A DNA stretch of 64,000 nt from Eledone cirrhosa (lineage: Eukaryota): NCBI GenBank assembly GCA_964016885.1, contig OZ024751.1, forward strand, positions 17,670,001 through 17,734,000. The letters run 5' to 3'. Both the position numbers and the translations under genes were made by a program. Shown piece after piece: positions 211 to 62,925 of this stretch. The notes below the pieces were generated by a model. That model was not told the origin of the DNA. It ran no database searches and saw nothing but the letters and a program-made list of their open reading frames with translations. Numbering within the stretch: position 1 is the stretch's first letter; every line of letters starts with the position of its first letter.

Positions 211-825
211 GTTATAATAAATGTTCGTTATAATAAATGTTCGGGGAATCCATACGTACATATATATATGTGTGCATGTATGTATATATATATACATACT
301 ACTGTATGTATGTATACATATATGTATGTACGTTTACATACTTATATTTAAGTAACAGCCGTACTAAGAGTGGGAAATGAAATTTCGTTTCATTTTTTCC
401 GTTTATCGTTTTCGGTGCACCCGGTCGATTAACCAACTGGATATGCAAATTGGGCAACTCAGCCGTTAATATGCATAAGGTAAGTATATACGTTTAACAA
501 TCTGGCAGGAAGGTATACGTTGCTGACGATAGCTAATGAACTTGAAACTAGTACAGCGTTCCTCTGTCAGTGTTGAACAAACGAGCAACGATGGTTGCTA
601 GACACTACGGCTTAATACGGGATGTTTGTTTACAAACACACCGAGCGTTATAATAAATGTTCGGTGAATCCATACGTACATATATATATGTGTGCATGTA
701 TGTATATATATATACATACTACTGTATGTCTGTATACATATATGTATGTACGTGTACATACTTATATTTAAGAAACAGCCGTACTAAGAGTGGGAAATGA
801 AATTCGTTTCATTTTTTCCGTTTAT
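211..825 (+). mobile_element. Non-coding hammerhead-bearing element, partial tandem (about 1.4 units, 420-bp period), in (TA)n
   Basis: 226-405 is repeated at 646-824; one hammerhead at 517-559; related in reverse orientation to 40460-41502. Confidence 0.7.
517..559 (+). ncRNA. Minimal type-I hammerhead ribozyme (weak stem II)
   Basis: ACGTTG-CTGACGA-tagctaatgaactt-GAAA-CTAGTA|CAGCGT; stem I ACGUUG/CAGCGU; palindromic ACTAGT stem III. Confidence 0.65.
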
Positions 826-2467: not shown

Positions 2468-2933
2468 TACATACATATATTCGTTTGAAGTGTATATTAT
2501 ATGAATAAATGCATGTTTTATATTATACAGTTTTGTTCTATGTATATATATGTATGTATTTATATATATATATATATGTATGTATGTATATATATATATG
2601 TGTGTGTATATATATGTGTGTGTGTGTATGTGTGTGTGTATACACCTGGATAATCAGATTAAGACGTTAATGAATGCATATATACGCCAATACATAATAT
2701 ATAATCTATAATGAATAATAAACCAAATTGTACGAGGGTAACGTTATTTGGGTCGCTGTTAAAGACGTTACCTTCGCAACCAAGTGAGTCACGTTTCCGA
2801 ACCAGCGCACATCACCTTTTTATATCACTTGTAATTCATTTGTTTATGTAGGACAGAGGTTCTCAATGTGGGCGCTACCGCCCCTCAGGGTGCGTAAAAA
2901 AGGTCCAGGAGGTGCTGGTACTTAAGGGGTTGG

Positions 2934-3207
2934 TCTAAAGTCTAAAGTCTAAAGTCTATCTTAAGCCAGATGGCTCATTTGGCCGGTGCATATCCCGGTT
3001 TCCTGGCGTGAAACGACTGAGAATACACGCCAGTCCATCGGAGGGTTAAACCCCCAGCTCTTGCTGGTACTCATTTTCAGCTGAGTATACTGGAGCAACG
3101 TGAAATGAGGTGTTTTTCTCAAGAACACAACACGCATCCCAGGAATCGAACCCACGACATTATGATCGTAAGTCCAACACCCTTAACACTAGGTCATGTG
3201 CTTCCAC
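2934..3207 (-). mobile_element. tRNA-derived SINE with (TTTAGAC)n tail, nested in the hAT MITE
   Basis: Minus strand has a tRNA-like head (GGGTTCGATTCC B-box), a central aaaatgagtaccagc domain and a 7-bp repeat tail at 2934-2958. Confidence 0.75.
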
Positions 3208-3299
3208 TAGAGATGATATAATAGTATATTAAATATCAAATGATACATACATATAAATATAGTAAAATAAAAAATATATAATATTTATTTATACATTTA

Positions 3300-3642
3300 G
3301 GGCAGTGAAATGGCAGTATCGGTCGACGCTTGGACGCCATGCCTTCTAGCATAGTTACGTCCCTTTACTGTCTGAGTACAAATCCCGTCGGGGTTAACTT
3401 TGCCTTTCATCCTCACGGGGTCGATAAAATAAAGTACCAGTAATATACTGGGTAATTGCTGGCCTTGTGCCAAAAGTAGAAGCAATTATATTTATTTATA
3501 CATCGTATATATTATATTATTTATATCTGAGTACAAATCCCGTCGAGGTTAACTTTGCCTTTCATCCTTACGCGGTCAATAAAATAAAGTACCAGAAACA
3601 CACTGGGTAATTGCTGGCCTTGTGCCAAAAGTAGAAACAATT
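3300..3642 (+). mobile_element. SINE family A: full copy (3300-3488) plus partial copy (3526-3642)
   Basis: A-box-like TGGCAGTATCGG, B-box-like GAGTACAAATCCC, core gttaactttgcctttcatcct..gtcgataaaataaagtaccag (resembles the MetaSINE domain, from memory). Confidence 0.85.
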
Positions 3643-4118
3643 ATTTATTATATATAAATTAACGATTTTATTTATAATATATAATTTACAATTCGCATGT
3701 AGGTAGTTCTCTCTGGAAATAGGGTTTTGGGCGGTGAGGGTTTTACGTGGCCGTTAGAGGGGTGCGGCCCAAAAGATTTGAGACCCTCTGATGTAGGAAG
3801 TCGTCTAATTTGAGGGACATTTGGCGGATACGTTTAGCAGATTGTGCACCTATTTCAAGTAATGTGTTACTACACTCTCTGTTTTATTCTATTCACATAT
3901 GAGTCTTTGTAAAGGGATATTAAATAATCCAAGTAGTTGATCGATATTTTATTTTTATCGATCGTGATAAGATGAATTGCAACTACAACGATTGAAATCA
4001 ATAAACATCATATTTAATAAACCTCACGGATTAATAGCTCTTTAATGACCAAAGGACAGGTCTTGATTGTTTCAGTCTGAAACTATACCTATCCAGGCAG
4101 CAATATTTCTAGTAGGTC

Positions 4119-4336
4119 AGGTGGTGGATTGGCACAATCGGTAGAGCATTGGAAAACATGTTTAGTGACATAGAGTTACTACCCTTTACGTTTTGAGTTA
4201 AAATCTCGTCCAGGTTAGCTTTGCCTTTCATCCAAACGGGGTCGATAAATAAAGCACTAGCAATGCACTAGGGTCGATTTAATCAACTTTCCCCTACCCT
4301 ACAAATTGCTGGCCTTATACCTAAATCAGAAAACGA
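4119..4336 (+). mobile_element. SINE family A
   Basis: Same head, core and 3' ttgctggcctt segment as other copies. Confidence 0.8.
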
Positions 4337-5339
4337 TATTTATAGCAGGTTCCAAATTCAACCACGTGGTCAAGCTTAACTAATGAAAATCGACCTAGCT
4401 ATTGCGTTTGCAGATATTGATTCAACCAAACACCGAATATATTCTGATCAAGCGTATGTATACTTTTCGTGTGTGAACCACCCTGTAGAAATGCAGTGAA
4501 TCTGCAAAGGATTCCTAATAAATTTAAACTCTACAACAAAGTAAATCGCAGGAATATTAGATCGCACACCACGAACAAATCCAAGAGCTTTTACAAATAA
4601 AATTGGTCATCTAGGACAGAAGTATCCGCCCATAGATAGAGCATTAACTGAGGCAGCCTTCTCATCAAACCCAATCATTTATATATCTTCTTCTGCTTTC
4701 TTCTTTATGTGGGTCCTTTATCTATATACATTTCCAGAGACTACATCCAACTATTCCCCTAATAACTATTAAATTACCTCCCTATATTTTAGTTTTAACA
4801 ATCACTATATCTAAACCAACAGAACATATATATGTATATCTTCCTATACCCCTAATTTTCTGGAAGTATTTACATTTGAAAGGAAAAAAAACCCATTATA
4901 AAATTGGGTCTATATAGACTGAGGATCTGAGGCCGATCAGTGAAATTGACAGCGAGAGAAACAATTGTAACTAAATAACAACATTGAGTAATAGATATCG
5001 ATCTATCTATGTCAATGTGTATGCATTTATCTCCCCCCTCCTCTCTCTCTCTCTCTCTATCTATCTATATTTCTCTCTATCTTTATACACACGCAGATTG
5101 CTGATATTGTAACCTTCGTGAATCCACTGAACCACCCAACATATATATATATATTTAATACAATAACAGAGATAGTTTAAAGCTAAACTCTGACTGGTAA
5201 CCATCTCACTCAACAAACATTAGGTTATATTTAAATATAAACCCAATTTAAGTGTTTGGGGTGCTAACAATATGTATAATGTGGAAAAACCAGTTGTATT
5301 ATTTTATGAGATATAATTAAAGTTAAAGTATATCTCTCT

Positions 5340-5464
5340 TTCCAAACAATTGTTTCATTATAAGTTTTCTACAAGTTGGGAGAATATTTCCAGTTTATGT
5401 AGAAGCCTAATATATATTCATGTAAGAATATATTTAGGTGGGCGCTTATAAATCATCAGTGGAA
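5340..5464 (-). ncRNA. Type-I hammerhead ribozyme with a large branched stem II
   Basis: Minus: TTCCA-CTGATGA-tTTATAAG...CTTATAAt-GAAA-CAATTGTT|TGGAA; about 95 nt between the core boxes, containing two sub-hairpins. Confidence 0.7.
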
Positions 5465-5673
5465 GCCCATTAAACTTTGATATAAGAAAAGAATTCTTAC
5501 CGCAGTCAAAAATCGTGTCTGTTAAGTTGCTCCTTCTCGCATCGAATGAACGCCAAATTTGAAATTCCAGCAGTTTTTGACTGAGGAAGTATCATAGCGA
5601 CACGAAGCGGAAAGGGGAGACAACTACGATCCACGAAAGGAGGAAAAAAAAAAATAATATACACGCGATATAT

Positions 5674-5674
<1 letters not shown>

Positions 5675-5719
<45 letters not shown>

Positions 5720-6548
5720 GGTCGAGCTTGCTCGGCTTTCTATGACACGTTTCCTCCATCCATCTCTGTCTCTCATAGCATTTGCCAGTTCTTCCTCAGT
5801 GCATCCAGTATCGTCCTCAAGTTGCTTGACGTATGTCTTCTTGGGACGACCAGCGTTTCTTGCTCCATGAGATGGACTCCATAACAACACATCACCTGCT
5901 ATTTCTTCCTTGCTGCGCCAACAGCGGCCAGCAAATCTGAGTCTCTGTCCACGTATTGACCTGCTGATAGGTGGTATATTGCCATAGAGATCCTTATTTG
6001 TTGGGTGTTCCCTCCAAGACACGTTTAAAGCAGCACGGAGCATACGTATGTATGCCCCGTCTAGCTTTTTCTCCAGTTTCGACGTTAGCGTCCAAATGAA
6101 AGAGCCATAAACAATCACAGATTCCACAGCAGCTCTGAAGAAATTCCTTTTCAGTTTGGCCAGCAGGTTTGATTTCCATATTTTTTCCATTGCATTCAAT
6201 GCTCCCCAGGCTTTTCCCAGTCTGATGTTAACATCATGTTCAGTGGAGGCGATATAGCTACCCAGGTATTTGAAGTCGTCAACTTGCTTGATTATATCGC
6301 CGTATAGACTTCGCATACCAACTGAGGAGTCTTGTTTCAGGCAAATATATTCTGTTTTGCCTGCGTTGACATAGAGTCCGATTTCCTTTGCAACTGATTC
6401 GATGCTGTGAAGTAGTGATGTTGCATCCTTAAGGTAGTCAGCGAGGACTGCTAAATCATCCGCATAGTCAGCATCGGTGATTTTCTGAGCTGCATGGCGT
6501 CTAAACTTTCGCTCTGTGAGAGTGAGACCAAGCTCTAAGTTTTCTAAG
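5675..6548 (-). mobile_element. RTE-clade LINE, 5'-truncated, with (TGA)n tail
   Basis: Open frame 6548-5717: DADYADD RT motif, FKYLGS, RLRFAGRCWR, GRPKKTY, DRDGWR. The stop codon is the first unit of the (TGA)n tail. 5' end abuts (TA)n. Confidence 0.93.
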
Positions 6549-6680
6549 ATATATATATATATATATTCACATACATATATATATACATATATGTATATAC
6601 ATATATATGAATATATATATATATATATATATATATTCATACATATATATATATATACATATATATATGTATAATATATA

Positions 6681-6795
6681 TAGGAACGAGTAGGACCCCG
6701 ACGGCTGAGCTCAAGCCGTTTCGACGGCTAATTCTGGACTAAAAATGTACTTTGGTGCGTTATGGTCCATCTGGTTCCTTACCACATTTCCTTCG

Positions 6796-11929: not shown

Positions 11930-13005
11930 TGATGGAATCGTTAGAAGGGTGTTCAAAATACCTGGTGGTCTTTAATCCATTTCATTACGGCGTAATTACA
12001 CGTCCCGCTGAGATCTACTCTTGTCATATCATGTTTCCACGATCGATAATATAATGTACAATTTTTGGATTGGCCAAATCGACTTTAACTTCTCAGCGAA
12101 ACTCTCACTGCGTTTAACTTTGTTTTTCATCCTTCCAAGGGCGATATAAAATAATATATTAGTCAGGTGTTGGAGTCGATAAATCGACTTCCCCCTCACT
12201 TTCAAAATTATATATTATACTTAAATTATAAACCATTATTTTCATTATTATAGAGTGTGGAAGGGCAGTGAATTGATAGCATCGGCAGGGCGTCGGAGAA
12301 CATGCTTTGCAGCATAGAGTTACGGCCCTTTATGATCTAAGTTCAAATCCCGCCGAGGTTAACTTTGCCTTTCATCCTTACGGGGTCGATAAAATAAAGT
12401 ACCAGTCACGCACTGGGGTCGAGGGTCGATTTAATCGACTTTCCCCCTCCCCAAAATTGTTGGCCTTGTGCCTATATAAGGAATAATTATTATAGGGTGT
12501 GGATTGTCAGCATCAGTAGAGTGTCGGAAAACATGCATCGTGGTATATAGTTACGACCCTTTACGTTCTGATTTCAAATACCACCGAAGTTAGCTTTCCC
12601 TTTAATCTCTACTGGATCGATAAAATAAAGTACCAGAAACGCACTGGGTTCGATTTAATTGAGTTTCCTTCCCTCCAACGTGTTTGGACTCGTGCTTCCA
12701 TCAGAAATCAATAACATGGAAGACAATGATTAAATAGGTGTCATGCTATATAGTTACATATTTTAACGTTCTGAGTTCAAATCCAGGGATGTCAATTTTA
12801 CTATTCATCATTCCATTCGAAGTTTTTTATAATGATTTCTAGTATAGGCACAAGGCCAGCAATTATCCCAGTGTATTACTGGTACTTTATTTTATCGACA
12901 CGTAAGGATGAAAGGCAAAGTTTACCTCGGCGGAATTTGAACTCAGATCATAAATGCTACAAAGCATGGCACCAGACCCTCTACCGATACTGCCAATCCA
13001 TCGCT
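11930..13005. mobile_element. Cluster of SINE family A copies (+: ~11930-12240 degenerate, 12263-12490, 12495-12710; -: 12835-13005)
   Basis: Repeated A/B-box heads and core motif. Confidence 0.8.
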
Positions 13006-16986: not shown

Positions 16987-17073
16987 GAAAAATTGAACAG
17001 GGACAGAACAGAGAGGCAGTACGACAAATGTTTATTAAATTCACGCTCAGGAGGGTGGGGGGGTAGGTGGAGG

Positions 17074-17105
17074 ACGACGTTTCGGGCATAAGCCCTTCTT
17101 CAGGT
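17074..17105 (-). ncRNA. PLE pLTR minimal hammerhead
   Basis: AC-CTGAAGA-aGGGC-ttat-GCCC-GAAA-CGTC|GT; stem I only about 2 bp. Confidence 0.7.
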
Positions 17106-17936
17106 GAGAGTTCAAAAGGTGTGTAGGGGAGTGGTGGAGAGACATATAGCGAAAGGAAACGGTGCGAATGAAAAATTAACAAATAAAGACAAAAATATAA
17201 TAAATAATAAATAAAAATAAAGCATGATCAAAATACAAGGAATGAGAACATTTAAAAATAAAGGCATGATCAAAATAAACTGAAATTAAAAGGGGGGTAA
17301 ACAGGTGGTGGAAGGGTGTGGGGTGAGTAGAGGTGGAGGCGGGTGGAGTGGGGAGAGGGAGACGGGGTGTCCGAGCGGGGAGGGCTGAAGGTGGTGTGTG
17401 TGGTTAGGTGTGCGTGTGTGTGTGTGTGTGTGTATGTGAAAGTGAGGGTTGGGGGAAGAACGGGGTTGCATGTTCAGGAAGGTGTGTGTGGGGGGTGTTT
17501 TTGTGTGTCGGAGGGTCTGTGCGTGTGTGGATAGGGGGTGGGGGGAGAGGAATCAGGGGGCTGAGGGTGTAAATATGTGGTGGGAAGCACGTGTGTGTGG
17601 TTTAAGCGTGTTGTGGGTGTGGGTGGCGTGTGGATAAAAAAAATTGTTTTCGGATGTGTGTGTGGGTGAGTTATATAGGTGATGGTGTTAGAGGATGGTT
17701 GAAAGTGGTAAGTTACACGGATGTATGGAGATTTTGGTTGGAAGTCGAACGCGTGTGGGTAATCCAAGAAGTGGTGGTCGGAAGAGGAGAGATGTGGGGT
17801 GCGCGCGCAACAGGAAGTGGTCAGCAGTGGAAGTGCTGTGGTCAGTTGGTGCTGAGACAGTGGTCGGAAGGGCATAGCAGCAGTCAGCGGAATGGTAGGG
17901 AGGCGAGGATGGGTAGGTGTGAGAGTTGGAGTGAGG

Positions 17937-17985
<49 letters not shown>

Positions 17986-18459
17986 TAGTAGGGGTGTTAG
18001 TGGGATGAGTGAGTGTGGAGTGGGGAGAGAAGGGTGTGTGGTTCTATGGAGGGAGTGTGGTGTACTGGTGTGTGTGTAGTTTGGTGAGGAGGTGTTAGTG
18101 GGTGTTAGTAGACGGGAGGTGGGGAGGGGTGGAATGCAGGTGTGAGTGGGGGTTAGTGGGGGTAGGGTGTGTAGAGTTGGTGGTGTACGAGGGTGTGTGG
18201 GTACGTGTGCGTGGGGTTGGAGGGTGTTAGTGATGTTAGTTGCGTGTGGGGTGGGTGGTGTAAGTGTGTGCGTGTGATAAGGAGGGGGGAGGAGGAGGAG
18301 AGGGGAGGGAAGGGATGTTAGTATGTTAGTTGGGGAAGGGTGGTCAGATGAGGGGTGGAGTGGAGGTGTTAGTATTGTTAGTGTGGGGTGGGCGGTGAAA
18401 AGGAGGGGTGTGTTAGTGGTGTTAGTGGGGGATAAGTGGGGGAGGGGGGCGGTCGAACG

Positions 18460-20409
18460 CTAAAGGAATAAGGGTGGGGAGTTCAGGCCGGGGAGAGTGT
18501 GGGTCTGTAAGATGAAGATAGTACGTTGTTCGACCGTGAGGCGATGGGCGGGTGTTCCGTGGCACTGGAGTAGGCCACAGACTGTGAGATGGTGTGCGGA
18601 GTGTCCAGGGCCACCAAAGTGGCGGGCGATGGGGGAACTGCCCCCGAGACGAATGTCCCGGAGGTGCTCCGTGACTCGGTCCGCCAGGCGGCGTCCCGTC
18701 TGTCCGACATAAGTCGCGCTGCACCTCGTGCAACGAAGTCCGTAGACTAGGTTGGAGGAGGTGCAGCGGAAGGCATGCCGGACCGAGAGAGGGTGGCCGT
18801 TGGGACCCTGGAAGGTGGTGGTGTTGGTGATGTGGGGACAGGTGTTGCAGCGGGGTCTAGAACAGGGGAAGGAACCGGGGGGGGGGGGGAACAGAGCGTG
18901 GGTTGGGGGGTAGGGAGCTGTGGACGAGGAGGGTGCGGAGATTGCGTGCGCGTTTGAAGGAGGGGAGTGGTGGGGTTGGGAAGATGTGGGAGGTGGAGGG
19001 GTCGGACTGGAGGTGTCGGAAGAGGCGGCGGATGGTGCGGTGGAGGGGTAAGGTGGAGGGGTGGTAGGTGATGGGGAAGGGGAGACGGTGGGTGGGTGTG
19101 CGGTGGCGTGGGGTGAGGGTGGTAGAGCGGGGGATAGCACGGGCGCGGGTGAGAGCGGTGTGGACGAGAGAGGGGGGTAACCTCTGCGGATGAAATGGCT
19201 GACTAGGGAAAGGGCCTGGGACTCGAAGTCAGCATCTCGGCTACAGAGGCGGCGGATCCTGAGAAGTTGGGAGTAGGGAATGGAGAGTTTAGTGTGGGTG
19301 GGGTGGGAAGAGGTGAAGTCGAGGTAAGAGTGGGAGTCGGTGGGTTTGAAGAAGGCGGAGGTGACGAGGGAGTGGTGGGAGGGGTCGAAGGTGACGGAGA
19401 TGTCCAAGAAGTGGACGTGGGTGGTGGAGATAGAGGTGGTGAAATGGAGGGAGGGGTGGAAGGAGCAGAAAAAGGAGAGAAAGGAGTCGAGCTGTACTCG
19501 GGTGAGGGTCGTGGCTCCGATACAGTCGTCAATGTAACGACCGTACAGTTCGGGCGTGGGGCCGGTGTACTGGGCAAAGATTTGGGCCTCAACATGGCCA
19601 ACAAAAAGGTTGGCATAGTTCGGGCCCATTCTTGTGCCCATGGCTACCCCCGTGACCTGTTGGTAAAACTCACCCGAGAAGGAGAAACAATTTAGGGTGA
19701 GGACCAGCTCGGCGAGGCGAAGGAGGGTGGGGGTGGAGGGAATGGGGGAGGGGCGAAGGTCGAGGTAGTGTTTGAGGGCGCGAAGGCCGTCGGCGTGGGG
19801 GATGACGGTATAGAGGGACTTGATGTCTAGGGTGAAGAGGAATGGCTGAGGGCCGGGTAGGTAGCTGAAGGAGTCGAAAAGGCGCAGGGCGTGGTTGGTG
19901 TCAGAGATGTGGGAGGGGAGGGTGGTGACAAGGGGGGCGAGGAGGGAGTCGAGAAAGGCGGAGATGAGTTCGGTGGGGCAGTTGCAAGCGGAGACGATGG
20001 GGCGGCCGGGGTTGTCGGGTTTGTGGAGTTTGGGGAGGAAGTAGATGGTGGGGGTGCGGGGGGTGCGGACGATGAGGTGGGAAGCGGTGGGGGGGAGGAG
20101 GGAGGAGGCGATAAGGTCTTTGATGGTGGAGGAGACTTGTTGTTGGTAGAGGGGGTGGGATCGGAGGGTAGAGGGCGGTAAAAGAGGGGGTAACAGAGCT
20201 GCCTGAGGGCTTCGGCCTTGTAGAGGTCCGCGCGCCATACCACCACGGCGCCTCCCTTGTCCGCCGGTTTGATGACGATGTCATCTCGGCTACGGAGGGA
20301 GCGGAGAGCGAGGAGTTCGCCCCGTGAGATGTTGTGCCGTTTGGAACGGTGGCGGAAGTCGAAACGATTTACTGCGCTACGGCTGGCATCGACGAAGGCG
20401 TCCAGGGTG

Positions 20410-24869: not shown

Positions 24870-24911
24870 ATGATATTAATAAATGTAAACTATATTTATA
24901 GAACCATATTT

Positions 24912-24970
24912 ATTTTATTATATATATTTCAAGGGTACCAAAATTTTGGTACGCTCTCATCAGATAAAAT
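24912..24970 (-). ncRNA. Minimal type-I hammerhead ribozyme
   Basis: ATTTTAT-CTGATGA-GAGCGTACCAAAATTTTGGTACCCTT-GAAA-TATATATA|ATAAAAT. Confidence 0.85.
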
Positions 24971-25097
24971 ACAAAATTTGTTCTATAAATGTTGACATAC
25001 CCAAAAAACCAGACCTTATCGGTTCAGGTTCAGTTTGGAGCTGAACCGAGAAGGTCTTGTTTCTTGGGTATGTCAACATTTATAAAACAAATTTTAT

Positions 25098-25156
25098 ATT
25101 TTATCTGATGAGAGCGTACCAACATTTTGGTACCCTTGAAATATATATAATAAAAT
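25098..25156 (+). ncRNA. Minimal type-I hammerhead ribozyme
   Basis: ATTTTAT-CTGATGA-GAGCGTACCAACATTTTGGTACCCTT-GAAA-TATATATA|ATAAAAT; 7-bp stem I. Confidence 0.85.
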
Positions 25157-25295
25157 AAATATGGTTCTATAAATATAGTTTCCATTTATTAATATCATTG
25201 ATATTATACTCCAGAAAAGCTGTAGAGTGCTTCTAATCTGTTATAAATAAATTTGTTGAATAATCAACAAATTAAATATCTCGCTTAAATATCTT

Positions 25296-32507: not shown

Positions 32508-32925
32508 AGGGTGGTGGATTGGCAGTATCGGTATAGGGTCGGACGCCATGCTTTGCAACATAGAGTTACGGCCCTGTATGAACTGAGCTCAAATCCCGCC
32601 GAGGTTAACTTTGCCTTTCATCCTTACGGGGTCGATAAAATGAAATACCAGTAATGTACTGGGTAAATGCTGGCCTTGTGCCAGCAGTAGAAACAATTAT
32701 TATAGGCTGTGGATGGTCAGCATCAGTAGAGTGTCGGAAAACATGCATCGTGGTATATAGTTATGGCCCTTTACGTTCTGATTTCAATTCGCGCCGAAGT
32801 TAACTTTGCCGTTAATTTCTACTGGATCGATAACATAAAGTACCAGTCACGCACTGGAGTCGGTTTAATCGACTTTCCCTCTCCCCCAAAATTGCTGGCC
32901 TTGTGCCTATATAAGAAACCATTAT
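32508..32925 (+). mobile_element. Two tandem SINE family A copies
   Basis: Same two-subtype arrangement as 12263-12710. Confidence 0.85.
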
Positions 32926-36160: not shown

Positions 36161-36452
<292 letters not shown>

Positions 36453-36473
36453 ATATATATATATATATATATA

Positions 36474-36754
36474 GGGCGGGTAAAATACCCGAGATCCATG
36501 GACGAGTTCTCTCCAGTGGTCTCTGTCCCTCATTATCGCTGCCATGTCCCGCGTCTCAAAGAGACCAGTGTCTGTCTTTAGGGCATCAACATACGTTAAC
36601 CTTGGTCTTCCTCTTCCAGTGTGACGATGTAGGGGCTCGCACACGAGCACTGAGTGCAATGTCAACTCTGGATGTCGGTGAGCATGTCCACCTAACCTCA
36701 GTTTCCTCTGTGTCACTTTTGAACTGACTTTTGGGAGACTCCCGTACAGCTCTG

Positions 36755-36757
<3 letters not shown>
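36474..36757 (-). mobile_element. RTE LINE 3' fragment in (TA)n
   Basis: RKLRLGGHAHRH...GRGRPRLTYVDALKTDTG..MRDRDHWR; shorter copy at 58557-58709. Confidence 0.85.
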
Positions 36758-36822
<65 letters not shown>

Positions 36823-36967
36823 GAGGGAGAGAGAGATAGTAAGAATAACTGTAGTTTTTATTGTTTTTATCGAACACTTCAAAGATGAAATGCAAAATTG
36901 AGTTGGATTGGATTCGAACTGAAAATGGAAAAATATGGCGGCTGGGACCTCTGTCGATTTATACAAT

Positions 36968-38803: not shown

Positions 38804-39592
38804 AAAAAAAAAGGAAAAGAATGACTTCACTTGTAGTGTTAAACAAATTTTTATGATTTAATGTTATAATATAATTATTTCTACTTTTGGCACAAGGCCA
38901 GCAATTACCCAGTACATTACTGGTACTTTATTTTATCGACGCCCGTTAGGATGAAAGGCAAAGTTAACCTCGACGGGATTTAAACTCAGACCGTAAAGGG
39001 ACGTAACTATACAGGAAAGCAGGGTGTCCGACCATCTACCGATACTGCCAAATATAATTGTCTCTACTTTAGGCACAAGGCCAGCAATTATTCAGTACAT
39101 TACTGGTACTTTAGTTTATCGACCCCGTAAGGATGAAAGGCAAAGTCAACCTCGACGGGATTTGAACTCAGACCGTAAAGGGACGTAACTATACAGGAAA
39201 GCATGGTGTCCGACCCTCTACTGATACTGCCAATCCACAATATAATATAATATTATGAGTTTGTAGTTAACAAAGAACTGACTGGATCTACCAACTCCGT
39301 CGATTGGAAGTATCGTTAGAGGGACGGGCGCCATGTTTTGTAGCATAGAGTTACCACACTTTATTATCTGAGTTCAAATCCCACCGAGGTTAACTTTGCC
39401 TTTCATCCTTATGGGGTCGATAAAATAAAGTACCAGTAATGCACTCGAATAATTGCTGGCCTTGTGCCAAAAGTAGAAATAATTATATTATAACATTAAA
39501 TCATAAAAGATTTTTTAACACTAAAAGTGAAGTCATTCTTTTCGTTTTTTCAAATATACCTAGCTGTACTAAGGATCTCACACATTTCCCAA
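38798..39592. mobile_element. Inverted-arm element whose arms include SINE family A copies; tail 39559-39592
   Basis: Unique 38798-38875 is the reverse complement of 39484-39558, and the match continues through the adjacent SINEs; an extra SINE lies at 39055-39237. Confidence 0.7.
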
Positions 39593-39997: not shown

Positions 39998-40293
39998 TGG
40001 AAAGTTATATTTAAATTGTTGGGTTACAACTAGTAAATATTTATAACTGATATAAAAGCACTCGACAAGTATTTGGAGTATATTTACGTATATTTGGAGT
40101 ATATTTGACTGCCAAATCAACTTTTCAAATACAAGTCGATGTTGAACGGTATGTCAAATCTATTTATCTATAAAACTGTCTATATTGTATTTTGTCTGAG
40201 GAAGGCATAGCATATTGTTAATATGATATCCCTGAAATATATATAATGAAATAAATATGGTTTTATAAATATAGTTTCCATTTATTTAATATC
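39998..40293. mobile_element. Hammerhead element, same family as 53817-54286 (inverted tail plus one arm)
   Basis: High similarity to 53817-53903 and 54104-54286. Confidence 0.85.
40189..40252 (+). ncRNA. Minimal type-I hammerhead ribozyme
   Basis: ATTTTGT-CTGAGGA-AGGCATAGCATATT-gtt-AATATGATATCCCT-GAAA-TATATATA|ATGAAAT. Confidence 0.8.
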
Positions 40294-40303
40294 GTATATA
40301 AAT

Positions 40304-40354
<51 letters not shown>

Positions 40355-40377
40355 AATATATAAATATATATAAATAT

Positions 40378-40464
<87 letters not shown>

Positions 40465-40754
40465 AACAAATAACGAAACGAAATTAAATTTCGTTTCGTT
40501 TGTAACTCACTTTTGTATGACTGACGCTTAAACAATTAAGTTAAAAATGTACATCCACATATGTATACTGAAATACTAGTATGCATATGAATACACACAC
40601 GTATACATATGTAGTTGTACCGAGTTTTTCACTGGTCACTTTACTGTGAGTGTCCAGCTATTCTGTATGTAAACACACAGACAAACCGGTTTTTAGAGTC
40701 ATACTGGTTTTTGAGGAAACACCTTTCCTCTATTCTCCAGAAAGCCAGGCAAGG

Positions 40755-40799
40755 AATATTGAACTAGTTTCGATGTTGTTACATCTCATCAGCAATATT
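40755..40799 (-). ncRNA. Minimal type-I hammerhead ribozyme
   Basis: AATATTG-CTGATGA-GATGT-aaca-ACATC-GAAA-CTAGTT|CAATATT. Confidence 0.9.
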
Positions 40800-41234
40800 T
40801 ACCTATCTTCCGGCCTCTCTAGAGAATCGTAAAAGCACATATCGTTATATGCTTTTTCTATGAAAATTAGTAGTGGGCAGACCAATTTGCATAGAGCGTG
40901 AGTACGTACCGGTTCAACGGAGACGATAAAAACAAATAACGAAACGAAATTAAATTTCGTTTCGTTTGTAACTCACTTTTGTATGACTGACGCTTAAACA
41001 ATTAAGTTAAAAATGTACATCCACATATGTATACTGAAATACTAGTATGCATATGAATACACACACGTATACATATGTAGATGTACCGAGTTTTTCACTG
41101 GTCACTTTACTGTGAGTGTCCAGCTATTCTGTATGTAAACACACAGACAAACCGGTTTTTAGAGTCATACTGGTTTTTGAGGAAAGAAGATAGGTAGATA
41201 TAGGAAGATAGATAGAGAGGCCGGAAGATAGGTA

Positions 41235-41279
41235 AATATTGCTGATGAGATGTAACAACATCGAAACTAGTTCAATATT
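41235..41279 (+). ncRNA. Minimal type-I hammerhead ribozyme
   Basis: Identical to the 40755-40799 motif; 7-bp stem I, 5-bp stem II, palindromic AACTAGTT stem III. Confidence 0.9.
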
Positions 41280-41523
41280 CCTTGCCTGGCTTTCTGGAGA
41301 ATAGAGGAAAGGTGTTTCCTCAAAAACCAGTATGACTCTAAAAACCGGTTTGTCTGTGTGTTTACATACATAATAGCTGGACACTCACAGTAAAGTGACC
41401 AGTGAAAAACTCGGTACATCTACATATGTATACGTGTGTGTATTCATATGCATACTAGTATTTCAGTATACATATGTGGATGTACATTTTTAACTTAATT
41501 GTATATATAAATATATATATATT

Positions 41524-41558
<35 letters not shown>

Positions 41559-41564
<6 letters not shown>

Positions 41565-41751
41565 GAACCAGTAAGACCCCGACAGCTGAGCTCAAGCCGT
41601 TTCGACGGCTAATTCAGAGAATTAGCCGTCGAAACGGCTTGAGCTCAGCTGTCGGGGTCTTACTGGTTCCTATTATCCACTCTACTACCTCAAGTATTGA
41701 GTACTTTGGTGCGTTATGGTCCACCTGGTTCCTTACCACATTTCCTTCGTT
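41559..41751 (+). mobile_element. Family G inverted-arm element in (TA)n
   Basis: Nearly identical to 36258-36452 with a different turnaround point. Confidence 0.85.
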
Positions 41752-41774
41752 ATATATATAAATATATATATATT

Positions 41775-41853
<79 letters not shown>

Positions 41854-44726: not shown

Positions 44727-45546
44727 CGTGTGTGTGTTTACGTGTTTGTGTGTGTGTATTTGTGTGTGTGTTAAAAAGAACACGCACGAACTTAACAGAG
44801 TGCATTTTGGTTCGTTTTCATCAAGTATAATTTACGTAATAACTCCACAAATAATAAACTACTACAATTATGTATATTTCAAGCATGCGACAAAACGTCT
44901 CTGTTAGAGGAACGATAGTGGAAGACAAGTCTGATGTAACATCAAATAAAACACAATATTATGCCTTTATTCTTATCAATAGCCTCAGAAAACATGTTAG
45001 GTTTTAAATGCGCTACGTTTCTTCTTTTGGTGAAACATTGCATTAAAAAATGTTACAAATTTAATAAGAGTCGTGCTAATTGTTAAATCATTGTGTCAAT
45101 ATAATAGATTTAAATGATTGGAAGGCCAAAACAATGTGTTGCTACCCTCAATTGAGAGGCCTGGCGAGCTGCAGTTGCTATTCCAGGGCGTCTCTCTCAT
45201 CATTCTCAGGAGTAATGTCTTGTCCATCCTGTCGATAGGGACCACGAGGTGGACTGAACCTTAAGTTTCATTTATGGTAGTGGAATATGGAATATATTTA
45301 TTTACATGAGCATGAGTAGGTTGAGTTACGAAACAATGTTCCTGGGTTCTAACTCTACATTCGTCCTTGTAAATAAAAACACTACGTTTCATATTTATAC
45401 GGATTGTTTGGTCTTCCAATTATTTAAAGTCACAAAAGTTATTTTGGTTCTGTTTACCTTACTTCATTTCAGTTGTCTATCAGGAATGAAACCCTGTTGT
45501 TTAGGGGTTATGATTCTGGGTTCATGATCGTAAAGTCGTGGATTCA

Positions 45547-45923
45547 ATTATCCCAGTGTATTACTGGTACTTTATTTTATCGGCCCCGTAAGGATGAAAG
45601 TCAAAGTTAACCTCGGCGGGATTTGAACTCAATAAAAGACAATAAAAGGCCGTAACTCATTGCTGCAAAGAATGGCGTCCGACCCTCTACCGATACTGCC
45701 AATCCACCGCCCCACTTAGAGATTTAATAGACTTTCTGAAATAATTGTTTCTACTTTAGGCACAAGGCCTGCAATTAGCCAGTGCATTACTGGTACTTTA
45801 TTTTATCGACCCCGTAAGGATGAAAGGCAAAGTCAACCTCGGCGGGATTTGAACTCAGATCGTAAAGGGACGTAACTATGCTGGAAAGCATGGCGTCCGA
45901 CATTCTACCGTTTCTGCCAATCC
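45547..45923 (-). mobile_element. Two SINE family A copies
   Basis: Reverse-complement head and core, twice. Confidence 0.85.
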
Positions 45924-46279
45924 AAGACTCCAATCTAATGCTATGACAATCAATAGGTGGGTGGATTAATCACAGAAGACAATGCCAACAACAACATCTT
46001 CATTGACGTACTTCAAAATGAAACTAGGTTCAAGACTGTGTCGGAAATACGATGAGTGTTGGTGGATCGCGACATCTGATATAGGTAGGTCTACCTGGTT
46101 TGATTGGGAGGTCGTCGAAGATGGGATGAGCTGAGGTTGATGATACACATATATTAGATATATATATATAAACACCAGCACACAATAATAGATATACAGG
46201 CAGTCAGTCAGGCAGTTAGACATAGAAACCGTCAGACCTATAGACTGATAAACTGACAGGAAAACAGACATACTGAGAT

Positions 46280-52673: not shown

Positions 52674-52793
<120 letters not shown>

Positions 52794-52834
52794 CGAAACA
52801 TAAGTCAATTGCATGAACTCATAATCCTTTATTT

Positions 52835-52890
52835 ACTGCTATATATATTTCGATGATAGCCATTGAATGGCTATGACCTCATCAGGCAGT
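52835..52890 (-). ncRNA. Minimal type-I hammerhead ribozyme (copy 1)
   Basis: ACTGC-CTGATGA-GGTCATAGCCATT-c-AATGGCTATCATC-GAAA-TATATATA|GCAGT, followed by AATAAA. Confidence 0.9.
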
Positions 52891-52962
52891 TAGTCAGTTC
52901 TTAGATATGCCAGCTCTGTGTGTATAGTGTTGATGGTATCATAGCCTTGGGACATATGTATA

Positions 52963-53012
<50 letters not shown>

Positions 53013-53053
53013 CGAAACATAAGTCAATTGCATGAACTCATAATCCTTTATTT

Positions 53054-53109
53054 ACTGCTATATATATTTCGATGATAGCCATTGAATGGCTATGACCTCA
53101 TCAGGCAGT
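53054..53109 (-). ncRNA. Minimal type-I hammerhead ribozyme (copy 2)
   Basis: Identical to copy 1. Confidence 0.9.
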
Positions 53110-53181
53110 TAGTCAGTTCTTAGATATGCCAGCTCTTTGTGTATAGTGTTGATGGTATCATAGCCTTGGGACATATGTATA

Positions 53182-53239
<58 letters not shown>

Positions 53240-53280
53240 CGAAACATAAGTCACTTGCATGAACTCATAATCCTTTATTT

Positions 53281-53336
53281 ACTGCTATATATATTTTGAT
53301 GATAGCCATTGAATGGCTATGACCTCATCAGGCAGT
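53281..53336 (-). ncRNA. Hammerhead copy 3, probably inactive (G12A)
   Basis: GAAA box reads AAAA. Confidence 0.7.
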
Positions 53337-53479
53337 TAGTCAGTTCTTAGATATGCCAGCTCTGTGTTTATGGTGTTTATGGTATCAGAGCCTTGGGAGA
53401 TATGTATATATATATATATATAAATAGAGAGAGAGAGAGAGAGAGAGAGATAGGTAGGTAGATAGGTACAATGATAAGT

Positions 53480-53818: not shown

Positions 53819-53947
53819 AAAGTTATATTTAAATTGTTGGGTTAACAACGAGTAAATATTTATAACTGATATAAAAGCACTCAACAAGTATTTGGAGTAT
53901 ATTTATGATATTAAATAAATGGAAACTATATTTATAAAACCATATTT

Positions 53948-54011
53948 ATTTCGTTATATATATTTCAGGGATATCATATTAACAATATGTTATGCCGTCT
54001 TCAGACAAAAT
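53948..54011 (-). ncRNA. Minimal type-I hammerhead ribozyme
   Basis: Reverse complement of 54179-54242. Confidence 0.8.
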
Positions 54012-54178
54012 ACAATATAAACAGTCTTATAAATAAATAGATACGACATACCTTTCAATCACCTTGCATTTGGGAGGTTGATTTGGTAGTCCAAATCAAC
54101 CACCCAAATCAACCTCCCAAATGCAAGGTGATTGAAAGGTATGTCGTATCTATTTATTTATAAGACTGTTTATATTGT

Positions 54179-54242
54179 ATTTTGTCTGAAGACGGCATAA
54201 CATATTGTTAATATGATATCCCTGAAATATATATAACGAAAT
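54179..54242 (+). ncRNA. Minimal type-I hammerhead ribozyme
   Basis: ATTTTGT-CTGAAGA-CGGCATAACATATT-gtt-AATATGATATCCCT-GAAA-TATATATA|ACGAAAT. Confidence 0.8.
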
Positions 54243-54280
54243 AAATATGGTTTTATAAATATAGTTTCCATTTATTTAAT

Positions 54281-54311
<31 letters not shown>

Positions 54312-62872: not shown

Positions 62873-62925
62873 ATTTTGTCTGATGAGGACGTACTGTTGT
62901 ACCTCCGAAATATGTATAATAAAAT
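62873..62925 (+). ncRNA. Minimal type-I hammerhead ribozyme
   Basis: ATTTTGT-CTGATGA-GGACGTAC-tgtt-GTACCTCC-GAAA-TATGTATA|ATAAAAT. Confidence 0.85.

Follow-up and report, generated by a model that had tools for sequence, protein, structure and literature searches.

The insertion considered here occupies positions 40460..41502 of the 64-kb window, by which we mean the whole stretch of DNA that was analyzed, and consists of a direct partial tandem together with an inverted copy of the same unit; this arrangement is confirmed. The full unit, 466 nt in length, lies on the minus strand at 40460..40925, where unit position 1 corresponds to 40925 and unit position 466 to 40460. Upstream of it on the same strand, a 5'-truncated copy that lacks the hammerhead (40926..41185, unit positions 207-466) completes a pseudo-LTR-forming partial tandem. 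On the plus strand, a junction patch of 27 nt (41186..41212), most of which consists of short pieces templated by unit positions 115-126, is followed by an inverted 5'-truncated copy (41213..41502, unit positions 105-394), the 3' end of which abuts a (TA)n tract. Read along the minus strand, the order is the partial copy (41185-40926), the full unit (40925-40460), and (TA)n, and the direct and inverted arms are joined 5'-to-5' around the 27-nt junction. Both outer ends of the insertion adjoin (TA)n, namely the target tracts at 40295..40459 on the left and 41503..41563 on the right, and no target-site duplication of the 466-nt unit insertion is readable in this flanking (TA)n.

The direct repeat (40460-40719 = 40926-41185) spans 260 nt with 1 mismatch and a period of 466, and the inverted arm (41213-41502) pairs with 40821-40532 over 290 nt with 2 mismatches relative to the full unit; in a second comparison, this pairing can be extended to 41505 via one mismatch and two TA matches. 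A preliminary description of this DNA had reported about 1.55 direct units plus an inverted segment, contiguous head-to-tail and with no credible ORF. The present measurements agree with it: the direct arm totals 726 nt (726/466 = 1.56 units), the inverted arm is 290 nt long, the units meet directly at 40925/40926, and a dimer of the unit contains no ATG ORF of at least 25 aa, its longest stop-free run being 60 codons. The unit has a GC content of 36%, and its fold has a z value of -9.8, with none of 100 shuffles as stable; in circular folds, the sense strand (-152 kcal/mol) is better than the antisense strand (-121 kcal/mol). A 13-bp terminal hairpin (40472..40500, minus strand) is followed by a T-rich tail that leads to the fixed 3' end at 40460, and a second copy of the hairpin and tail is found at 40938-40966. 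The outer ends of the insertion are 72 nt apart in the unit (466 vs 394), and a tail of 30-40 nt such as Penelope-like elements (PLEs) have is not clearly seen.

A type I hammerhead is located in the full unit at 40755..40799 on the minus strand, with the predicted cut between 40762 and 40761, and an identical one is located in the inverted arm at 41235..41279 on the plus strand, with the predicted cut between 41272 and 41273. Both consist of a 7-bp stem I, CUGAUGA, a 5-bp stem II, GAAA, and a 2-bp stem III closing a palindromic loop, with GUU as the cleavage triplet. Both match Rfam HH9 with 33.1 bits (E 7.3e-6), a score that does not reach the gathering score of 52, and Rfam gave 0 matches at the gathering threshold; miRNA-like Rfam matches were set aside as generic hairpin matches. 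The description of these as two identical well-formed hammerheads is correct as to sequence identity, the core, and stems I and II, but not as to stem III, which is only 2 bp long, nor as to the predicted monomer fold, in which the core is mispaired (P(core open) ~0.013). The hammerhead monomer is predicted to be mostly inactive. The stem III palindrome can pair between two copies (predicted -4.8 kcal/mol), and since stem III is a 2-bp palindrome, the hammerhead probably needs a partner copy. According to the accessible text of PMC4209133, a short palindromic helix III is typical of metazoan type I motifs, which are poor as monomers and active as dimers, and PLE-type hammerheads occur in pairs on opposite strands, 100-700 bp apart. 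At the present locus, each strand has one of the two hammerheads, and only one of them falls within the direct tandem; with a single hammerhead per strand, 40460..41502 would be unable to free a monomer of unit length through two cuts in cis. Neither viral contigs nor prokaryote genomes had any match (0 each) to exact or degenerate hammerhead patterns, and a metagenome scan with an over-loose hammerhead pattern gave 118 loci, the similarity of which never extended beyond 18-24 nt around the pattern.

A diverged sister family is represented at 226..825 on the plus strand, with a period of 420 (1.43 units), an octamer at 443-450, and a hammerhead core at 523-547. In its alignment with the unit, 256 of the 411 aligned positions are identical (62%) and the score is 293, the maximum from 100 shuffles being 57. 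The sister has the same permutation as the unit and a homologous 3' end that follows the same terminal hairpin; microsatellites lie on both sides of it, its 5' junction has a 16-nt duplication, and the z value of its fold is -5.4. When the structure of the unit is projected on the sister pair, 13 of the 154 pairs show two-sided changes, with 1-3 in slid controls, and 31 pairs are broken and 32 gapped; note that this covariation comes from two sequences only, with the structure taken from one of them. Within the hammerhead, stem I contains two compensatory pairs between unit and sister, and the sister's stem II has decayed.

Hammerhead elements are a common repeat class in the window. A loose scan of the 64 kb gave 25 hammerhead-core matches, and 9 of the 24 that were re-scored have a stem I of at least 5 pairs. 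Short hammerhead elements whose stem III is a palindromic TA repeat are present at 24870-25200, 53906-54290, 40000-40295, and 62880-62910; two of these four are 5'-to-5' inverted pairs, and one is the immediate left neighbor of the locus, separated from it by the (TA)n tract. In addition, three copies of a 169-nt hammerhead element, with (TA)n tracts between them, are found at 52790-53404 (minus strand), the core being intact in two of the three and the third having a one-base change in the GAAA box. The right neighbor of the insertion (41559-41752) consists of a perfect-looking palindrome (41562-41672) plus ~80 nt and is 96% like 36260-36451; an imperfect TA tract is duplicated around it (41502-41558 = 41751-41807), probably as its own target duplication. 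An abundant repeat of ~182 bp, both tandem and inverted, occurs at 38868-39500, 3305-3659, 12262-13000, 32508-32924, 45545-45924, and other places. Overall, the set of repeats appears octopus-like.

The window also contains an element that encodes a PLE protein. Its ORF (18460-20280, minus strand) contains an RT and a C-x4-C-x2-C linker, and relatives of this ORF carry GIY-YIG. The element as a whole (17080-20280, minus strand) resumes past a (TA)n gap to ~20534. Its ORF has a GIY-YIG-like end, and the frame appears disrupted; the element further has a long C-rich 3' region, a hammerhead core at 17103-17080, and a (TA)n end near 16990. The ORF shows this genome to have enzymes of this type and does not imply a partner role for the unit; between the PLE of the window and the unit, no sequence similarity is detectable. 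An RT ORF fragment that does not look PLE-like is located at 5717-6727 (minus strand; Pfam RVT_1, E 2e-6), and a related fragment lies near 36288-36857.

The unit or a part of it is contained in 20 of the 24 public runs listed (16 studies, 17 organism codes), none of which is recorded as RNA, a blank that weighs neither way, and four of the 24 (X1, X13, X17, and X23) were compared in detail against the permuted unit 40720-41212. X1, from which the window itself may derive and which is then not independent, has 1,161 matching contigs, and the share of these that continue into unlike sequence is 0. Its depth summed over the unit is ~1e5 to 7e5, a quantity that is a poor measure of abundance, and decreases in the 3'-to-5' direction, starting from a mean of 638k at the 3' end (Spearman -0.70, noisy), a gradient that fits what is expected for 5' truncation. 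The best-supported loose end of X1, present in 12 contigs, runs from 40926 into (TA)n and is the same 3' end as that of the locus and of the relative at 226-825. Among the best 12 of the 50 loose ends of the public-run contigs, there is no second common end, none in X1 lies at the unit's 5' side, and none attaches the unit to an ORF; a rare ORF-bearing partner could escape this sample. The preliminary description had named two observations that would speak against it, copies consistently attached to long PLE ORFs and a duplication confined to this locus. The former is not found among these 12 loose ends, and the latter does not hold either, the family being seen in X1, X17, and the sister 226-825.

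In X17, a single 503-nt contig, of a haplotype other than that of the locus, is self-closing over the head-to-tail junction, and the unit also self-closes in X1 and X13. Note that a closed contig, which every copy exceeding one unit by more than 30 nt yields, proves neither multimers nor a circle. The junction specific to the locus (41196-41212) has a depth of zero in all four runs examined, so the exact locus is without independent confirmation. In X13 and X17, the unit appears at a depth of 10-17 under other organism codes; possible carry-over between libraries could mimic horizontal transfer. The raw reads of X23, from organism F, contain 0 reads of the unit in 1,938 million letters (~1% of the run), a blank that counts as a test only if the organism is shown to be present in the run; another run of organism F does contain the unit. 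A horizontal transfer reading of the multi-organism matches was rejected in view of the low depth in X13 and X17 and the 0 reads in X23, and library carry-over is simpler.

Many sites of the family vary at 20-45%. A total of 23 variable sites were considered: 10 of these are unpaired in the predicted fold, and pairing is kept at 11 of the 13 paired ones. In particular, an A-U to U-A swap in stem II (40784/40773) accounts for 43-45% of the X1 depth and for all of X13 and X17. The three arms of the locus have only 2 substitutions between them in all, which are private to the arms, and represent a single haplotype at the common polymorphic sites of the family. Since they share one haplotype despite the variation of the family, a single template and a single recent event would fit.

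Of 18 transitions, counted on the ribozyme strand, 14 are A/G changes and the other 4 C/T. The A/G excess has a one-sided p of 0.017 when composition is considered and 0.043 when pairing is allowed for. X17 has seven changes that are below 5% in X1, six of which are A-to-G (p 0.005 or 0.037), and all six of these have A or U on the 5' side (p 0.07). All of the tests were made post hoc, on sites that are not independent of one another, and part of the bias is explained by G-U tolerance. RNA editing has already been raised as a possible source of retrozyme heterogeneity in the accessible text of PMC7229834; for the present family, the pattern of substitutions gives a weak hint, and a lead only, that inherited A-to-I editing may contribute to the bias. 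Editing of single RNA molecules as the source of the X17 changes is weakened by the recurrence of four of the six A-to-G changes in minor X1 contigs at depths of 2,600-6,200, which looks like an inherited subfamily.

An octamer, ATGCAAAT, is located at 40885..40892 on the minus strand (unit positions 34-41) in the 5' arm of a hairpin. Its position, earlier given as about 86 nt upstream of the ribozyme, is reproduced almost to the nucleotide, as 85 nt before stem I. The sister, which is 62% identical overall, has an exact match at the same place (443-450), the chance of this for eight preset columns being 0.023, and two of the three exact octamers in the 64 kb fall in the unit and the sister 226-825. 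As an enriched motif the octamer was rejected, because the 64-kb window contains 3 vs 6.0 expected. The 12-nt identity around the octamer is not special by length alone (P 0.41), and one letter of it, at 40883, is private to the locus and differs in 98% of the X1 depth. In the hairpins of unit and sister, the octamer arm is unchanged and the partner arm differs. Since the octamer forms a hairpin arm in both elements, pairing may explain its conservation. In X17, the octamer has two A-to-G changes, both of which retain pairing as G-U, and one of these is also found in X1 (depth ~2,600) and in one X13 contig. Judged from these comparisons, a promoter role for the candidate octamer is a tentative possibility that we consider rather unlikely. 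A full-length Pol III transcript of the unit is unlikely because of internal T runs, and a bacterial promoter scan of the unit was discarded as having no bearing on this host.

The internal promoter of newt satellite 2 includes an octamer. The likeness to our unit consists in the combination of a hammerhead repeat and an octamer, not in a sequence comparison, and the two differ in that the octamer of the unit lies in a hairpin arm. Newt satellite 2 consists of hammerhead repeats in tandem and has an internal Pol II promoter of the snRNA type (cited in PMC2220036); PMC6309819 contains nothing on the octamer. In the literature searched, which comprised titles and the starts of abstracts and left subscription papers, Repbase, and Dfam outside, the family itself, a role of the octamer, and the A/G bias are undescribed.

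Among known systems, metazoan non-LTR retrozymes are alike in having a short, ORF-less, low-GC, and highly self-paired unit with a type I hammerhead and head-to-tail arrangement, and in that the host genome also has PLEs. By its sequence, the present family appears to qualify as a retrozyme, having a hammerhead, a short, low-GC, ORF-less unit, and self-pairing. In size, the 466-nt unit exceeds the range of 150-450 bp given in the accessible text of PMC7229834 (Cervera and de la Pena 2020) and lies within the 51-972 bp given in that of bioRxiv 10.64898/2026.07.22.740005 (Li, Clavereau and Pollet). The latter text calls a retrozyme "active" when it has two consecutive hammerhead units, whereas the locus has 1.56 units and one hammerhead per strand; the supplements of this preprint may list families. 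EN+ PLEs are also alike in several respects: a partial tandem, an adjacent inverted 5'-truncated copy, and a (TA)n target, as described in parts of PMC8557442, a short palindromic helix III (parts of PMC4209133), and an internal fixed start of reverse transcription (parts of PMC11167929). They differ in that our unit is without an RT/GIY-YIG ORF, has a period of 466 nt, and shows no clear 30-40 nt tail; the locus is not an autonomous PLE, since it has no RT plus GIY-YIG ORF between pseudo-LTRs (pLTRs). The non-autonomous elements of Chlamys, such as MRC1, are likewise ORF-less PLE derivatives with pLTRs and head-to-tail insertions; as far as the accessible portion of PMC8557442 describes them, they differ in being algal, in generally resembling an autonomous family at the 3' end, and in that most lack canonical hammerheads.

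We regard the locus as probably a young insertion of a high-copy, protein-less, non-autonomous PLE of the non-LTR retrozyme class. The view of non-LTR retrozymes as non-autonomous PLE derivatives is a published model (accessible texts of PMC7229834 and bioRxiv 10.64898/2026.07.22.740005). The preliminary description had offered reverse transcription of a circular or multimeric RNA, or a mini-PLE reduced to its pLTR, as two possibilities. The PLE type is retained, but the two are not true alternatives, being one published idea. What can be kept of the proposed origin is an ORF-less PLE-type unit copied from more-than-unit RNA, since both arms cross the cut site and the fixed 3' end lies in (TA)n; from DNA, a circle is indistinguishable from an uncut multimer. 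In either case, the 726-nt and 290-nt arms both cross the intact cut site, so a cleaved linear monomer would not have served as the template, which leaves a circle or an uncut multimer. The proposal of a ligated circle as template is found in PMC4209133 and PMC7229834, as far as their accessible texts go.

The insertion may have arisen as follows. A tandem master copy would be transcribed into RNA, which dimer-dependent hammerheads may cleave into monomers of one unit that are ligated into a circle. The (TA)n would be nicked in trans by the RT/GIY-YIG protein of a PLE, and cDNA synthesis would begin 302 nt downstream of the predicted cut site, at a fixed position inside the unit. This first cDNA would make 1.56 rounds of the unit; a second one, primed from the other strand of the target, would copy unit position 394 to 105, and the two cDNA ends would be joined 5'-to-5' through short template jumps. 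The footprint of PLE insertion described in the accessible part of PMC8557442 is a partial tandem, often with an adjacent inverted 5'-truncated copy at the 5' end, and a bias for microsatellites, and the locus matches this geometry. For a PLE protein in vitro, the accessible part of PMC11167929 reports cutting of AT-rich DNA on both strands, an internal start of reverse transcription at a stem-loop without target homology, and uncut RNA as the main substrate.

Four other explanations were weighed. If the unit were no more than the pseudo-LTR terminus of an autonomous PLE of full length, the locus would be a heavily truncated insertion, and both the hammerhead type and the insertion geometry do match PLE pLTRs; the loose-end evidence, moreover, rests on the best 12 of 50. 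However, the period is 466 nt and not 3-4 kb, the unit self-closes without an ORF, the sister family closes likewise at 420 nt, and the share of X1 contigs that pass into unlike sequence is 0, so that we consider a truncated autonomous element very unlikely. There is an even smaller chance that the unit is a SINE-like element moved by a LINE instead of a PLE, with the inversion due to ordinary twin priming. Twin priming yields the same inversion geometry as a second priming from the other target strand, and the window contains an RT ORF that does not look PLE-like (5717-6727); on the other hand, copies that start internally and exceed one unit, a hammerhead of the PLE type, and the lack of a poly(A) tail speak against this, and the unit has no similarity to the 3' end of the 5717-6727 element.

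A DNA-level origin, by duplication and inversion of one solo copy through replication template switching, or else an assembly artefact, is scarcely probable given that the head-to-tail junction recurs in a different haplotype (X17) and at the homologous point of the 62% relative, that both outer ends abut (TA)n, that the arms have private substitutions, and that the inverted layout is also found in other short hammerhead elements of the window. The patchwork junction, however, also fits replication-based repair, and its depth is zero in four of four runs. We give equally little weight to the idea that the unit is satellite DNA in which the hammerhead is a passenger and which spread through unequal crossing-over or via extrachromosomal DNA circles: the fixed 3' end in (TA)n, the 3'-to-5' depth gradient, the RNA-structure covariation, and the better folding of the sense strand all argue against it, although the summed depth in X1 is very high and local tandem amplification is allowed by the accessible text of bioRxiv 10.64898/2026.07.22.740005.

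A more far-reaching extension of the reading as a non-autonomous PLE would place the family in an old superfamily of circular-RNA retrozymes that have their own octamer-based snRNA-type promoter, are moved by PLEs from a fixed internal priming site, owe part of their variation to A-to-I editing fixed by reverse transcription, and are convergent with newt satellite 2. We consider this combination improbable; a promoter role of the octamer, if real, or inherited RNA editing as the cause of the A/G bias, if real, would represent a new variant. Apart from this extension, the locus adds evidence from its footprint, namely a fixed internal start, a partial tandem, an inversion, and (TA)n, for the published idea that PLE proteins move animal retrozymes. 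With its 466 nt, the unit is also a compact substrate for asking which of the two templates, circle or uncut multimer, a PLE uses, and by what means hammerhead repeats lacking an ORF get transcribed.
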